Shown here: piece by piece, positions 33,753 to 36,966 of the stretch
How positions within the stretch are numbered: the stretch's first letter is position 1
Layout of the letters: each line of letters begins with the position of its first letter
NCBI GenBank assembly: GCA_963649415.1
Contig: CAVJHI010000004.1
Location: 2,497-66,496 of the forward strand
Origin: a bacterium
GTDB taxonomy: Bacteria > Bacteroidota > Bacteroidia > Bacteroidales > UBA932
Length of the DNA: 64,000 nucleotides
Direction: 5' to 3'
Notes under the pieces: generated by a model
Database searches by the model: none
Seen by the model: only the letters and a program-made list of their open reading frames with translations
What the model was told of the DNA's origin: nothing
Made by a program: the position numbers and the translations under genes

Positions 33753-34604
33753 TCAAAAATACACAAAACACGCAACGGGAAGATGGTCACTTACTCCGCC
33801 TTCGTACCTCGGGCCGATGAATGTGCGCCGCGGCTTCTGGCCCCCGAATTTACGGTCCTCCGTTAGCAGGGCCGGATCGTCGAATACCTCCTCCCGCAGC
33901 TGTATGTCCCCATAGGAGAAGCAACCGTCAATCTTTTCCCATTTTCCGTTGTATTTAATGGTTCCGGGGCAATTTTCGGGCCATATACTGTCGTTAAAGT
34001 CTCCGATGCACACCACACTCTTCGTGCCCGCGCAAAGCAGCGAATCGACCGTTTCCTCCATTTTTGCGAATGCCGCCCTGCGCCGGTCGGATTTGCCCCC
34101 TATTTTGGATGGGTGGTGGTTGACGAGCACAGCAATCCCTTCCTTGAACTGCACGGAGAGTATGTCGCGGGTCGCAATCACCGCTCCGCTGCTGTCGCGG
34201 ATATGCACGGGGCGGCTCTCCTCGGGGCTCAAGGCCGAGCGGCGGTAGAGCAGCGCGCAGTCGATGCCGCGATGGTCGGGGGAGTCGAAGTGCACATAGG
34301 AGTAGTCCAGCTTGCGAAGGGGAGTTTCCTTTAGGAGGCTGCGGAGCACGAAAGCATTCTCCACCTCGGCGAGCGCCACGATATCGGGCAGTTTACCATA
34401 ACGGTCTGCAAATCTGAGAATTATCTTAGCAAGCGCGTCGCACTTGGAGTAGAATCTCCGCTTCGTCCAGTATTCCGGGCGGGCAGGGGAGCGGTAGTCG
34501 AAAAAATTCTCCACATTCCAGAACATTACGGAAATTGAATCCCTCTGCGCGTGTAGCGACAGCGGCAGCAGGATGGCGAGAAGTATTATCATAGTCCGTT
34601 TCAT
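33753..34604 (-). CDS. Secreted endonuclease/exonuclease/phosphatase (EEP) family protein
   Basis: It has a signal peptide (MKRTMIILLAILLPLSLHAQ) and EEP motifs (VMFWNVENFF, LAEVEN, GDFND, SDHLPV). Confidence 0.75.
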   Translation of the reverse strand: MKRTMIILLAILLPLSLHAQRDSISVMFWNVENFFDYRSPARPEYWTKRRFYSKCDALAKIILRFADRYGKLPDIVALAEVENAFVLRSLLKETPLRKLDYSYVHFDSPDHRGIDCALLYRRSALSPEESRPVHIRDSSGAVIATRDILSVQFKEGIAVLVNHHPSKIGGKSDRRRAAFAKMEETVDSLLCAGTKSVVCIGDFNDSIWPENCPGTIKYNGKWEKIDGCFSYGDIQLREEVFDDPALLTEDRKFGGQKPRRTFIGPRYEGGVSDHLPVACFVYF

Positions 34605-34768
34605 ACTGCTAATATGGTGATTTTTTGAGTATGTCCTCATCATTTTTATGAAAATTCAAATTATTTGTTTGATTTATTCCGGAATTTGCATATCTTGCCA
34701 CGGAACCAAGATTTACACATCGATAAACTCTCGAGACTGATGCCGTATTTTTTTTCTATTCATAGCTT

Positions 34769-34800
34769 CACTAGTGGCCAAATTTATTTGGCCACTAGTG
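34769..34800. repeat. Perfect palindrome CACTAGTGGCCAAA-TTTA-TTTGGCCACTAGTG (left copy)
   Basis: 14-bp arms with a 4-nt spacer, 15 nt upstream of the ATG at 34816. A second copy lies at 36426-36463. Confidence 0.9.
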
Positions 34801-34815
34801 ATAAAATATCTATTT

Positions 34816-35118
34816 ATGAAATCAAAACATCTTTTCATTTCAAGCATCGTCTTGCTTATTATGTCTGCTGCCATTTGCGGCTTGACGCTAACCCAAAACG
34901 ACCTTTCTTTAGGATTATTGTTTGAAGACCTGGAAGCATTGGCTTATTCGAATGAGCCACCAGGAGAGCAGGGATACCGACATTCCCAAGCCGTGTGGTG
35001 TGCCGGTGGAGGCTGGTCAATAAGAGCGGGATGTTGCTATGGTTCAGAGAATTGCTATAATATGGATCCGTGTGATGGACGAATGTATTCTTGTGACGGA
35101 AATAGCTGGTATAATTAA
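34816..35118 (+). CDS. NVEALA-family-like small Cys-rich secreted or membrane-anchored peptide (100 aa)
   Basis: MKSKHLFISSIVLLIMSAAICGLTL is a hydrophobic leader or anchor. LLFEDLEALA resembles the NVEALA motif of the Bacteroidales small-protein family. The C-terminal 56 aa contain 6 Cys and many G/W/Y/N. The ATG at 34816 is preferred over the GTG at 34774, which lies inside the palindrome. Confidence 0.65.
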   Translation: MKSKHLFISSIVLLIMSAAICGLTLTQNDLSLGLLFEDLEALAYSNEPPGEQGYRHSQAVWCAGGGWSIRAGCCYGSENCYNMDPCDGRMYSCDGNSWYN

Positions 35119-35135
35119 AATAAAAACATTTGACC

Positions 35136-36290
35136 ATGAAATATTTTTATATTTTATTCTTCGTTACCATTTGTCTCTCATGTTCTACTGTTGTTAACAA
35201 TGACTCTGCGGCTCCGACCGTTGATATAATCAAGGAAACAACGGAGGTGAAGACATTAGATAAATATATTTCTGATATTGATATAATTAGACTCAGCTCC
35301 GACTCTCTAACCATAATGTCTCCAAATAAACTTATCATTAATGGAGATAGATTAATAATCCTCTTTGCCGGAAGAGTATCCGAGTTTTCTTCTACCGGAG
35401 CTTTTGTCCGCAATATAGGGCGTGTTGGAAATGGCCCAGGAGAGTATCTTCACATTCAAGATTGTTGTTTGAATCACTCTGGAGATGAACTGCTTTGTTT
35501 AAATCACATGAATGAAGTTTTAATTTATTCTTTACGGAATGGACAGTTCTTAAATAAAATTCCAGCAGGCAATAGAGGTGTCACAGCTACTGCGGTACTG
35601 CCTCTTTCGGATGGAAAATTTGCATTGTTCTATCCTAATCCACCACAGGCGGACATAATGGATTTTGATAAAGAATTCAATTGTGTTAGAATTTATGACA
35701 AGTCTGGAAAGGAAATAGAAGCTTTGTCTCCACGAGAAGACTTTAATATCAGTATGGGCTTCACATCTCCTTCTGTTCAATCGTTCAAGGATTCTTATGT
35801 GCTTTCATATAAGCCAGGAGATGGTTTGTGTTATGTGGTAAAAGACGGAACAATAGCGCCTTTACTTAACATTACATTCGGAAACCATGGAATTCCAAAT
35901 AAAGAAGCGGTAACAGGAGTCGATGATCCATGGATGAAAATTTCTGAAATATTTGAGGCGGATTACTACAAATGCCCATCCTCCGTTTGCGAAACTGAGA
36001 AGGTCTTATATTGTTCAGCTTTTGGGAAGGGATCATCAGTATGGAATTTCGCACTTGATAAATCCTTAAAGCATGGAATTAGATGGCGTTCCATAGGTGG
36101 TTATAATCCCCCGATGCGAGCGTTGGCAGCCGACAAAGATTATTTGTATTTTTGCTTTGGTGAAATTGGTTTTGCCGACCCTTCGAAGACAGAGGACCTC
36201 TTACAGAAAATCATCATAGAGAGGTCGGGGCTTGTTCTTGGAGAGGAAGATAATCCTGTCCTTGTTAAAGTAAAATTCAAGCGATTATGA
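35136..36290 (+). CDS. 6-bladed beta-propeller lipoprotein (BF3164 / DUF5128-like family)
   Basis: MKYFYILFFVTICLSCS is a lipobox. The body is about 370 aa with repeated strand-rich blades (RLIILFAGRVSEFS, GNGPGEY..., FALFYPNP..., VLSYKPGD...), as in the Bacteroidales propeller family that usually neighbours NVEALA genes. It starts 17 nt after the peptide gene. Confidence 0.6.
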   Translation: MKYFYILFFVTICLSCSTVVNNDSAAPTVDIIKETTEVKTLDKYISDIDIIRLSSDSLTIMSPNKLIINGDRLIILFAGRVSEFSSTGAFVRNIGRVGNGPGEYLHIQDCCLNHSGDELLCLNHMNEVLIYSLRNGQFLNKIPAGNRGVTATAVLPLSDGKFALFYPNPPQADIMDFDKEFNCVRIYDKSGKEIEALSPREDFNISMGFTSPSVQSFKDSYVLSYKPGDGLCYVVKDGTIAPLLNITFGNHGIPNKEAVTGVDDPWMKISEIFEADYYKCPSSVCETEKVLYCSAFGKGSSVWNFALDKSLKHGIRWRSIGGYNPPMRALAADKDYLYFCFGEIGFADPSKTEDLLQKIIIERSGLVLGEEDNPVLVKVKFKRL

Positions 36291-36439
36291 ATAGCTTCTC
36301 AAGGAATAAGTGGACTGTGGCTCTGTGTGGAGTGGCCGTGAGTGTCCTTTTTTTCGTTATCGCTCTGCAATTCAGAGCGATAACGAAATTTAAAACGATG
36401 GAGCCCAGAGATAGATATATAAAATCACTAGTGGTCTAA
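36287..36439 (+). CDS. Possible 50-codon micro-ORF with one TM helix (MNSFSRNKWTVALCGVAVSVLFFVIALQFRAITKFKTMEPRDRYIKSLVV)
   Basis: It has an ATGA start/stop overlap with the propeller gene and is below the ORF-track cutoff. It contains a perfect 15-bp hairpin and ends inside the right palindrome, so it may be non-coding. Confidence 0.2.
   Translation: MNSFSRNKWTVALCGVAVSVLFFVIALQFRAITKFKTMEPRDRYIKSLVV
36353..36387 (+). terminator. 15-bp perfect hairpin downstream of the propeller gene (possible terminator)
   Basis: TTCGTTATCGCTCTG-caatt-CAGAGCGATAACGAA, followed by an A/T-rich sequence but no clean T-tract. Confidence 0.4.
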
Positions 36440-36463
36440 AATGATTTTATTTGGCCACTAGTG
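36426..36463. repeat. Second copy of the CACTAGTGG...TTTGGCCACTAGTG palindrome (imperfect left arm, longer spacer)
   Basis: CACTAGTGGtCtAAA-ATGATTTTA-TTTGGCCACTAGTG. The right arm plus 4 nt (TTTATTTGGCCACTAGTG, 18 nt) is identical to the left copy. Confidence 0.9.
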
Positions 36464-36918
36464 TAATATTAATCATTTTCACAACATGTGCTATACACTT
36501 TAATTCGGTATACTATTCGCTTGTGATTATTCTGACAATCCCTATATCTATGATTGGAGTCTTTCTTGCATTCGGACTCACTGACTTGATATTCGATAAA
36601 GGCGGATTTGCATCGTTGGTGCTGCTATGCGGAATTACTGTCAATTCCGGCATATATCTTGTTTCTGAATGGAAGCGTAGAAGTGGCCGAAAAAAATCCA
36701 AAGATTATATCCGAATGTTCAACAAGAAAATATGGCCTATCTCACTGACGATAGTTTCCTCAATTATCGGTTTGGCCCCATTTCTCATTGATGGACCTTT
36801 AGAGGTGTTTTGGTTTAATTTTGCTGTAGGGACAATTACTGGGCTGATATTTTCGGGGATCGCAATGCTTCTCTTTATTCCACCTTTCCTTTTGAATACA
36901 CCGAAACATCGTAATTAG
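36451..36918 (+). pseudogene. C-terminal remnant (about 155 aa) of an RND/AcrB-family efflux permease
   Basis: The sequence SLVIILTIPISMIGVFLAFGLTD...LLCGITVNSGIYLVSEW...PISLTIVSSIIGLAPFL...GLIFSGIAMLLFIPPFL aligns by eye with TM10-12 of RND pumps. The roughly 850 N-terminal residues are absent. The frame opens at a TTG inside the palindrome, just after a stop at 36442. Confidence 0.7.
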
Positions 36919-36938
36919 GGCTATCCGCTTTTTTTGAG

Positions 36939-36946
36939 TACATTTG
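36939..36946 (+). promoter_or_regulatory. -7 box TACATTTG upstream of ychF
   Basis: TAnnTTTG match 20 nt upstream of the ATG at 36967. Confidence 0.4.
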
Positions 36947-36966
36947 CACACTAATTTTTGAATTTT

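Follow-up and report, generated by a model that had tools for sequence, protein, structure and literature searches.

A cysteine-rich peptide gene paired with a β-propeller lipoprotein gene in Bacteroidales as a candidate source of secreted, disulfide-bonded mini-proteins

The 64,000-nucleotide stretch of Bacteroidales DNA analyzed here (lineage UBA932; assembly GCA_963649415.1, contig CAVJHI010000004.1, positions 2,497 to 66,496 of the forward strand; henceforth the window) contains at positions 34816–35118 a gene for a 100-amino acid (aa) protein that, judged from its sequence and its relatives, may be the precursor of a secreted, disulfide-bonded mini-protein. The gene is under strong purifying selection and belongs to a rare family of small, cysteine-rich proteins whose genes adjoin a gene for a β-propeller lipoprotein in every lineage in which we found them. 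An exported, disulfide-bonded peptide that works with its propeller is, in our assessment, a very likely reading of these data. The fuller picture, in which the product is most likely bacteriocin-like and acts in the style of a microcin with an immunity partner, strikes us as an even proposition, and its most specific form, a bacteriocin plus its immunity protein, as possible but doubtful. A first-pass annotation, made from the letters of the window, had described a three-part protein, in which an EALA-type linker joins the hydrophobic N-terminus to a Cys-rich core, and had placed its gene in a foreign-looking segment of low G+C content. Both descriptions hold. Overlooked were a conserved multi-gene module around the gene and the truncated state of the module copy in the window.

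The peptide gene and its family

The open reading frame (ORF) extends on the plus strand from an ATG at 34816 to a TAA at 35116–35118, and its translation is exactly the 100-residue sequence quoted in the first-pass annotation. The leader (residues 1–43; 34816–34944) comprises an MKSK n-region, a hydrophobic helix at approximately residues 6–25, and the linker TQNDLSLGLLFEDLEALA, which ends in a signal peptidase I-type A-L-A. The remaining 57 residues (residues 44–100; 34945–35118 including the stop codon) form a core with six cysteines (C62, C73, C74, C80, C86, and C93). Glycine, tryptophan, tyrosine, and asparagine make up 40% of this core, which has a calculated pI of 4.6, a net charge of about −3, and a mass of about 6.4 kDa; across the family, the net charge of the core spans −6 to +2. 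The closest relative found, located on the metagenome-assembled contig L007 (90% DNA identity), differs from the window peptide gene by 20 synonymous and 3 non-synonymous changes, giving a ratio of non-synonymous to synonymous substitution rates (dN/dS) of 0.03 at a dS of 0.4. Together with about 30 clusters of homologues in which the pattern of cysteines is retained, these values identify the ORF as a real gene under strong purifying selection and not a chance reading frame. The window copy has an intact reading frame and retains the six cysteines and every residue that is invariant in the family.

Homology to L007 starts at position 34803, and the L007 gene begins at the ATG equivalent to 34816. 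An in-frame GTG at 34774, which would yield a 114-aa product, lies inside a palindrome and beyond the L007-homologous region and was rejected; the ATG at 34816 is therefore the conserved start. A lipoprotein reading based on the sequence AAIC at residues 18–21 was also discarded, as this cysteine is not conserved among homologues. On two near-identical contigs the gene is represented only by an overlapping 52-aa call (L023, positions 840–998) or by the GTG-started 114-aa call (L024, positions 1–345), and the exact 100-aa product is absent from a collection of 15 billion proteins that does include the propeller of the same contig. Since gene callers overlook it or misplace its start, the peptide gene is effectively unannotated.

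A word-indexed protein search with the peptide returned one homologue, and HMMER, run exhaustively against 1.84 billion representative proteins, returned 32 matches at E < 1e-3. About 29 of these are small proteins of 76–159 aa; two matches, P0024 and P0027, are eukaryotic repeat proteins that were discarded as summed-repeat artefacts. The family, rare and unannotated, comes from uncultured Bacteroidales of gut and rumen. It falls outside all Pfam and NCBIfam models, and comparison with the PDB gave E values of at least 0.65 for the family profile against sequences and of at least 4 in a fold search with the peptide model. An alignment of 29 sequences shows a conserved core of 56–70 aa with the signature PGxQGxRxxQxVxC...GCCxGxxxC..(M)(N/D)PCxGxxFxC, in which C62, C73, G76, and C80 are invariant and P49, G50, R55, Q58, V60, and G72 are at least 90% conserved. 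All conserved columns fall at or after P49, i.e., in the C-terminal part. The N-terminus always starts M-K-K-like and continues with a hydrophobic stretch and a freely varying linker of 6–46 residues, which often ends in [DN]VEAL[AT].

The six cysteines to which the first-pass annotation had drawn attention are not only conserved among homologues but also covary in pairs. The same four members, and no others, lack C74 and C93. An extra cysteine at position 48 is accompanied by an extra C-terminal cysteine in all nine of its carriers, and none of the 20 other sequences has either. Two members with an extra cysteine after C62 both possess another one in the FSC region. Such paired gains and losses indicate disulfide partners. 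Because the cysteines covary in this manner, we expect disulfides rather than cross-links of the thioether type known from peptides that are made by the ribosome and modified after translation (RiPPs), and the core would then fold outside the cytoplasm, which fits the Sec-type N-terminus. An AlphaFold2 (AF2) model computed from the 29-sequence alignment (mean pLDDT 80) consists of a helix at residues 2–27, a low-confidence linker, and a core (pLDDT 85–88) built on a β-hairpin with strands at 55–62 and 68–75.

Several branches of the family depart from this plan. In P0017–P0021, P0025, P0029, P0030, and P0032, a Gly-rich GGSGGG replaces or follows the EALA linker; these sequences have gained a covarying cysteine pair (CPG plus a C-terminal cysteine), and four of them also lack C74 and C93. 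A second branch (L015 9858–10175, L019, L020, L021, P0006, P0010, and P0011) has a conserved acidic tail after the core, ending for instance in GGSKDDIIAHP, GGRGDSDDILDF, or SRDDDLHT, for which a sorting signal and a C-terminal propeptide are possible readings. P0022 is cut after the first core cysteine by IRSITTQSHGLKSSDFFG. The same sequence occurs in a reverse-strand ORF at L006 6497–6823, where it adjoins an IS21 element upstream of the peptide gene, and it probably represents a repeat or mobile element of small size.

The leader and its relation to NVEALA proteins

The first-pass annotation had likened the linker of the window protein to the motif that gives the NVEALA family (PF14055) its name. 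Four of the six residues of DLEALA at positions 38–43 are identical to NVEALA, and some homologues lack any such motif. A significant match to the Pfam model had been set beforehand as the test of this kinship, and none was obtained: the window protein scores 14.9 bits (E 0.022), below the gathering score of 27, and 2 of the 29 family members match at E < 1. The model itself is narrow, since a peptide of locus L003 with a literal NVEALA motif scores just 17.9 bits. In the eight-member subfamily of this peptide, termed A5, five members match PF14055 at E < 1 (best E 8.4e-5).

Profile–profile comparison recovered a relationship that is confined to the leader. With hhalign, our family and A5 align over 44 columns at 93.8% probability and an E value of 1.7e-7. 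The alignment runs from the MKK start through the hydrophobic segment into the (N)VEAL motif and stops at EAL, with no core column aligned. Two control profiles that also start with a signal peptide or a transmembrane (TM) anchor gave 6% and 2%, which argues against a generic artefact of hydrophobic sequence. By this comparison, the core is unrelated to the core of A5. The proposed kinship is thus supported for the leader, and for a genomic context shared with NVEALA-type peptides (see below), and it fails for the Pfam score and for the core as compared with A5. We read these data as a shared NVEALA-type leader that would precede interchangeable cores, with the window protein as a putative new core class outside the current PF14055.

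The sequence around the end of the linker is consistent with proteolytic processing. In most members, the residues before the core read ALA|Y, ASA|Y, SYA|Y, ALT|Y, ALS|Y, or similar, and a small-x-small arrangement is the pattern of type I signal peptidase sites. Members without a linker resemble ordinary cleavable signal peptides, as in P0003/L008 (…GETKASA|YSNE) and L015 (…INVNA|AE…); in the Gly-rich branch, the boundary reads GGSGGG|Y. Since no invariant or near-invariant column precedes P49 and the residues ahead of the core are mostly A-x-A|Y, the suggestion that EALA marks the boundary between leader and core is borne out.

The gene module and its truncated copy in the window

About 20 related loci from nine independent lineages (L001–L011, L014–L021) were gathered with an alignment of the propeller and a degenerate DNA pattern for GCC[YF]GxxxCxxM[ND]PC. 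The propeller gene adjoins the peptide gene in all nine lineages, usually directly downstream, and encodes lipoproteins of about 340–400 aa. In the window it lies at 35136–36290 on the plus strand, 17 nt past the peptide stop codon, and specifies a 384-aa, 6-bladed NHL-like β-propeller lipoprotein whose lipobox cysteine, Cys16, is invariant. This protein scores well above the cut-off of the DUF5128 model PF17170 (87.5 versus 22.9 bits) and has sequence matches to PDB entry 4RAA, a 'putative exported protein', and to NHL-repeat structures (NHL domains of TRIM proteins). Its dN/dS relative to L007 is 0.11. It has a lipid anchor only, with no transmembrane or cytoplasmic domain, and its invariant residues reveal no obvious catalytic or metal site. 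Acidic residues after the lipidated cysteine serve as a surface-export signal; because no such signal follows the lipid-anchored cysteine here, the propeller probably faces the periplasm.

A third gene follows or precedes the pair in eight of the nine lineages, the contig of the ninth being too short to tell. Its product of about 170–205 aa combines an N-terminal TM helix with an invariant P-x(3)-C-x-x-C-x-x-S-L motif (C84, C87) and matches neither Pfam models nor PDB sequences. An AF2 model based on three sequences (pLDDT 74) places the TM anchor before a β-CxxC-α-β-α-β-β-β-α arrangement with CxxC at a helix start, an order compatible with the β-α-β-α-β-β-α thioredoxin fold, in which CxxC sits at the N-terminus of helix 1. 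The best Foldseek matches of this model are mostly TlpA/ResA/CcmG-type oxidoreductases at non-significant values (E 0.03–0.5, TM 0.3–0.4). The evidence for a thioredoxin-like thiol:disulfide oxidoreductase is therefore suggestive, not proven.

Further components are found in some of the lineages. A transglutaminase-like protein is encoded just upstream in four of them (L007, L006, L003/L004/L011, and L017), with matches to the Pfam transglutaminase core below threshold (E 0.0004–0.04). S26 type I signal peptidases, defined here by a Pfam S26 match together with the boxes SM.P, KR..G.PGD, and GDN..S.DSRY, occur with intact catalytic boxes in L007, L006, L011, and L017, and match PF10502 at E 6.5e-20 and 2.4e-28. 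In L007, both functions are fused in one 699-aa protein, whose sequence contains GDSMEPTL, AKRCAACPGD, and GDNLVESVDSRY; the S26 gene of L017 directly adjoins that of the peptide, and L003/L004 have the transglutaminase-like gene without S26. TolC, MFP, and RND genes are adjacent in L007, L016/L018, and L015, with remnants in L006 and in the window. CBM9 and F5/8-type-C proteins were also seen. Inspection of genes at about 20 loci turned up no radical-SAM, YcaO, lanthipeptide, cyclodehydratase, or methyltransferase gene, and gene tables and Pfam scans of these loci revealed no ABC/C39 exporter. Genes for signal transduction (histidine kinase, response regulator, sigma/anti-sigma, or others) were likewise absent from the loci examined. 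At locus L003 (116–3431 and 9110–11589), three peptide–propeller pairs occur together. Their leaders are of the present family, of the NVEALA type, and of an NVELLTA type, their Cys-rich cores are unrelated, and the NVEALA-type pair has its own CxxC lipoprotein (CSQC). Propellers without a peptide were found at L003 10576–11589 and L006 8968–9999.

The window holds a cut-down version of this module, in which the genes for peptide and propeller are complete and under constraint but the oxidoreductase, peptidase, and pump are lost. Homology to L007 is limited to 34803–36425. The third gene is reduced to a 50-aa ORF at 36287–36439 (plus strand), of which the first ~46 codons, encoding the TM anchor, are homologous and the CxxC domain is gone. 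This remnant is 70% identical to its L007 counterpart over 46 aa, with a dN/dS of 0.40, and its last codons and stop codon are supplied by the second copy of a palindrome described below. A separate 18-1-18 palindrome at 36352–36388 (TTTCGTTATCGCTCTG C AATTCAGAGCGATAACGAAA) lies inside the coding remnant and is mostly conserved in L007. Directly after this remnant, a low-G+C, 155-aa ORF at 36451–36918 (plus strand) corresponds to the C-terminus of an RND (AcrB-type) efflux permease (model positions 872–1016 of 1021). It is 53% identical to the full-length RND gene beside the L015 module and 51% identical to a broken fragment near IS21 in L006, and it does not derive from the high-G+C RND operon of L007. 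We considered whether this ORF is a conserved small gene of its own and rejected the idea, as the sequence is part of a long RND gene in L015 and of a broken fragment in L006. No S26, transglutaminase-like, TolC, or MFP gene lies within the 64-kb window. With the accessory genes gone and the pair still constrained, either their functions are supplied from elsewhere in the genome or the pair works without them.

Two copies of a palindrome (TTTATTTGGCCACTAGTG), the only ones in the window, bracket exactly the ~1.6-kb L007-homologous segment. Copy 1 (34768–34801) forms its left edge and ends 15 nt before the peptide ATG; it is a perfect 16-2-16 palindrome (TCACTAGTGGCCAAAT TT ATTTGGCCACTAGTGA). 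Copy 2 (36425–36464), on the right, is imperfect and occupies precisely the place where the truncated third gene meets the RND fragment. Strong hairpins are predicted for both, with z-scores of −7.5 for copy 1 and −5.5 for copy 2. In L023, a contig 99.9% identical to the window, the sequence right after copy 2 differs, and the 51 nt that follow the palindrome there were found nowhere else; L024 is colinear with the window. The right-hand palindrome is therefore either a strain-variable junction or a repeat that misleads assembly. The palindrome is missing from L007 and most other loci, with a related hairpin located upstream of the L001 peptide gene, and a role as a conserved operator or RNA element of the module was rejected on the grounds that, apart from the L001 hairpin, the other family loci do without it. 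Searches of JGI metagenome contigs, IMG/VR, and plasmids did not retrieve the palindrome; a single-arm match in an IMG/VR phage gene is attributable to chance. Candidate explanations for it are a recombination site, a REP-like element, and one end of a mobile cassette; in the last case, the 1.7-kb peptide–propeller segment between the two copies would be that cassette.

The module remnant coincides with an island of low G+C content at approximately 34550–36950. With values of 0.31–0.44 against 0.54–0.58 in the flanks and 0.547 in the whole window, and with sharp edges, it is the lowest-G+C stretch of the window; a milder dip (0.434) occurs at 16–17 kb. The island gave no match to plasmid sequences, PADLOC returned none, and an Rfam scan of the window and of the island was also negative. 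A stretch of 282 nt of the window (34445–34726) is absent from the near-identical L023 (528–530), with an 'act' microhomology at the breakpoint. The absent stretch includes the 5′ end of an endonuclease/exonuclease/phosphatase gene (33753–34643, minus strand) and part of the intergenic region. The Bacteroidetes −7 motif TAnnTTTG is enriched in the window, with 37 matches against 16.8 expected and no shuffle reaching 37. One of these, at 34779–34786 on the minus strand, occupies the center of palindrome copy 1 and points toward the divergent endonuclease gene; no exact plus-strand TAnnTTTG lies upstream of the peptide gene.

Proposed function, alternatives, and known systems

A working model assembles these components in five steps. 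Sec would insert and translocate the precursor, and a type I signal peptidase, encoded in the cluster in several lineages, would cut after the A-x-A that ends EALA. The thioredoxin-like CxxC protein of the cluster would next oxidize the 57-aa core to three disulfides in the periplasm. A dedicated oxidizing enzyme would be needed because Bacteroides lack general disulfide machinery, and bacteroidetocin loci carry a thiol oxidoreductase for this reason (PMC6671954). The cognate, periplasm-facing propeller would bind the folded, anionic core, most likely as an immunity or holding partner, and a TolC–MFP–RND pump would, at several loci, export the peptide or keep it out of the cell. There is a precedent for such a partner in Tsi1, a partial β-propeller that is a periplasmic immunity protein (PMC3391265). 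We infer a toxin or bacteriocin function from gene context: the rarity and patchiness of the family, its low-G+C islands, the multi-pair loci, and the propellers that lack a peptide would all be in keeping with antagonism, the propeller then conferring immunity or holding the peptide. A broader version of the model would make the NVEALA-type leader the dedicated processing tag of an as yet undescribed, Sec-dependent, periplasm-maturing bacteriocin system of Bacteroidales, in which S26, sometimes fused to a transglutaminase-like domain, removes the leader, the thioredoxin-like protein installs disulfides, propellers confer immunity, RND–TolC exports, and unrelated Cys-rich cores are interchangeable warheads; we give this generalization a slim chance.

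Several observations weigh against the working model. In the window leader, ~18 residues separate the hydrophobic segment from the A-L-A, a longer distance than is usual for sites of the housekeeping signal peptidase I. The thioredoxin fold depends on the three-sequence model and the non-significant structural matches described above. Purifying selection acts on the window peptide despite the truncation of the oxidoreductase gene beside it, which means either that the genome encodes another oxidoreductase elsewhere or that the proposed dependence does not hold. Only about half of the lineages have the S26, transglutaminase-like, and RND genes. Being anionic, the cores are not classic membrane-active peptides. 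Finally, at 384 aa the propeller would be an unusually large immunity protein for a peptide of 57 aa and could instead be a chaperone, receptor, or enzyme.

Some of these points would be accommodated by an uncleaved, signal-anchored membrane protein whose disulfide-rich periplasmic domain works with the propeller in a non-antagonistic envelope role such as sensing, tethering, or assisting transport. The long, confidently predicted AF2 helix agrees with a permanent anchor, as does an EALA motif that in many members lies ~18–25 residues beyond the hydrophobic segment. All module partners are themselves membrane- or lipid-anchored and extracytoplasmic, and the cores, besides being anionic, are conserved instead of hypervariable. 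We nevertheless consider this explanation unlikely. Linker-less members place textbook cleavable signal peptides before the core (ASA|YSNE, VNA|AE), several lineages encode S26 signal peptidases in the cluster, and patchy rarity, a low-G+C island, and multi-pair arrays fit accessory or competitive roles better than housekeeping ones.

The first-pass annotation had also raised the possibility of a RiPP-like precursor. In such a scheme, the core would be modified by the transglutaminase-like protein, through Gln cross-linking or deamidation at QG.R..Q, or by a propeller enzyme, and the NVEALA-type leader would serve in recognition. Its attractions are the division into leader and core, a leader motif common to families with unrelated cores, the recurrence of the transglutaminase-like protein, once fused to S26, and the near-invariance of Gln58, with Gln52 common across the family. 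These are outweighed by the lack of any classical RiPP enzyme among the genes examined at related loci and by the paired covariation of the cysteines, which points to disulfides; in addition, the transglutaminase-core matches are sub-threshold and the invariant residues of the propeller suggest no catalytic or metal site. The suggestion is not supported by these results, and we regard a true RiPP as improbable.

A secreted signaling or cue peptide with the propeller lipoprotein as its receptor would account for the 1:1 pairing of the two genes and for the conserved core, whose strongly conserved N-terminal motif could be a docking epitope. It is harder to reconcile with loci in which no signal-transduction gene was seen and with a receptor candidate that has only a lipid anchor and neither a transmembrane nor a cytoplasmic domain, and its probability appears low indeed. 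A decaying or non-functional relic in a degraded island, suggested by the truncated module (the third gene cut at about codon 46, the RND gene reduced to its tail) and by gene callers that missed or mis-started the ORF in near-identical contigs, is effectively refuted by the dN/dS of 0.03 over 20 synonymous changes since the split from L007 (as against 0.40 in the truncated neighbor), by the preserved frame, six cysteines, and family-invariant residues, and by a dS of 0.4, which speaks against recent transfer of both copies from one donor.

Among known families, NVEALA proteins (PF14055), small proteins of Bacteroidetes, resemble the exported, propeller-associated peptide proposed here: a hydrophobic N-terminal segment precedes a motif of the (N/D)VEALA type, for which the window protein has DLEALA, and the C-terminal part is short and contains cysteines. 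They are also encoded beside DUF5128 propeller genes, with both peptide types side by side in L003. They differ in that the window protein scores below the threshold of the model, in the unrelated core as judged against A5, and in family members that lack the motif and instead have a plain signal peptide or a Gly-rich linker. PF14055 proteins are 77–91 aa long, and the peptide family described here is longer (88–117 aa). To our knowledge, no function is known for DUF5128, and a search of 8 million full-text papers returned nothing on NVEALA or DUF5128 in this context, only unrelated uses of the search strings.

Bacteroidetocins offer a second comparison. They are made with a double-glycine leader of 15–16 aa that an ABC transporter with a C39 peptidase removes during export, yielding 42-aa mature peptides with four cysteines, and their loci include a 5-TM protein (PMC6671954). 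Like them, the window protein would be a small, leader-cleaved Bacteroidales peptide with intramolecular disulfides, cleavage being a prediction in our case. Both occur in accessory, patchily distributed loci, with an adjacent thiol oxidoreductase in bacteroidetocin loci and, here, a CxxC protein in eight of nine lineages whose fold is only suggested. In contrast to bacteroidetocins, the window leader comprises 43 aa, is hydrophobic and Sec-type, ends in ALA, and has no double glycine; the loci examined contain no ABC/C39 gene, and the partners are a propeller lipoprotein, S26, a transglutaminase-like protein, and RND–TolC. There is no sequence similarity between bacteroidetocins and the window peptide.

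Class II microcins are Gly-rich, anionic peptides of less than 10 kDa with a cleaved leader, sometimes disulfides, TolC-dependent export, and an adjacent immunity gene. The anionic, Gly-rich core proposed to contain disulfides would resemble these more closely than cationic pore-formers. Microcins have double-glycine leaders, ABC–MFP–TolC export, and small inner-membrane immunity proteins, whereas the system described here has a Sec-type leader, an RND-type pump where one is present, and a 384-aa propeller lipoprotein as putative immunity partner. With RiPP precursors in general, it has in common the organization into leader and core and a conserved leader that precedes divergent cores. Already known, then, are leader-cleaved, disulfide-bonded Bacteroidales peptides with a dedicated oxidoreductase, and databases contain the NVEALA/DUF5128 pairing. 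New are a core family that no model covers and that has no structural relative, and a module composition, i.e., a propeller lipoprotein, a TM-anchored CxxC protein, a private S26 peptidase with or without a transglutaminase-like domain, and RND–TolC, that has not been described before.

Few secreted toxins are characterized in the competition among gut Bacteroidales, namely BSAPs, bacteroidetocins, BfUbb, and effectors of type VI secretion systems. The peptide gene offers a solid lead into unstudied envelope or competition systems of this order, tempered by the truncated state of the window module. For the hitherto 'dark' NVEALA/DUF5128 pairing, it provides a testable model of five elements: a leader/core peptide, a cognate lipoprotein, an oxidoreductase, a signal peptidase, and an efflux pump. 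Should the peptide prove to be a toxin, it would represent a new class of Gram-negative peptide bacteriocins, in which Sec and a private signal peptidase replace the double-glycine ABC exporter, as well as a large reservoir of disulfide-rich scaffolds. Should it not, the strict 1:1 pairing of peptide and propeller would still define an unexplored envelope system of uncultured gut and rumen Bacteroidales.

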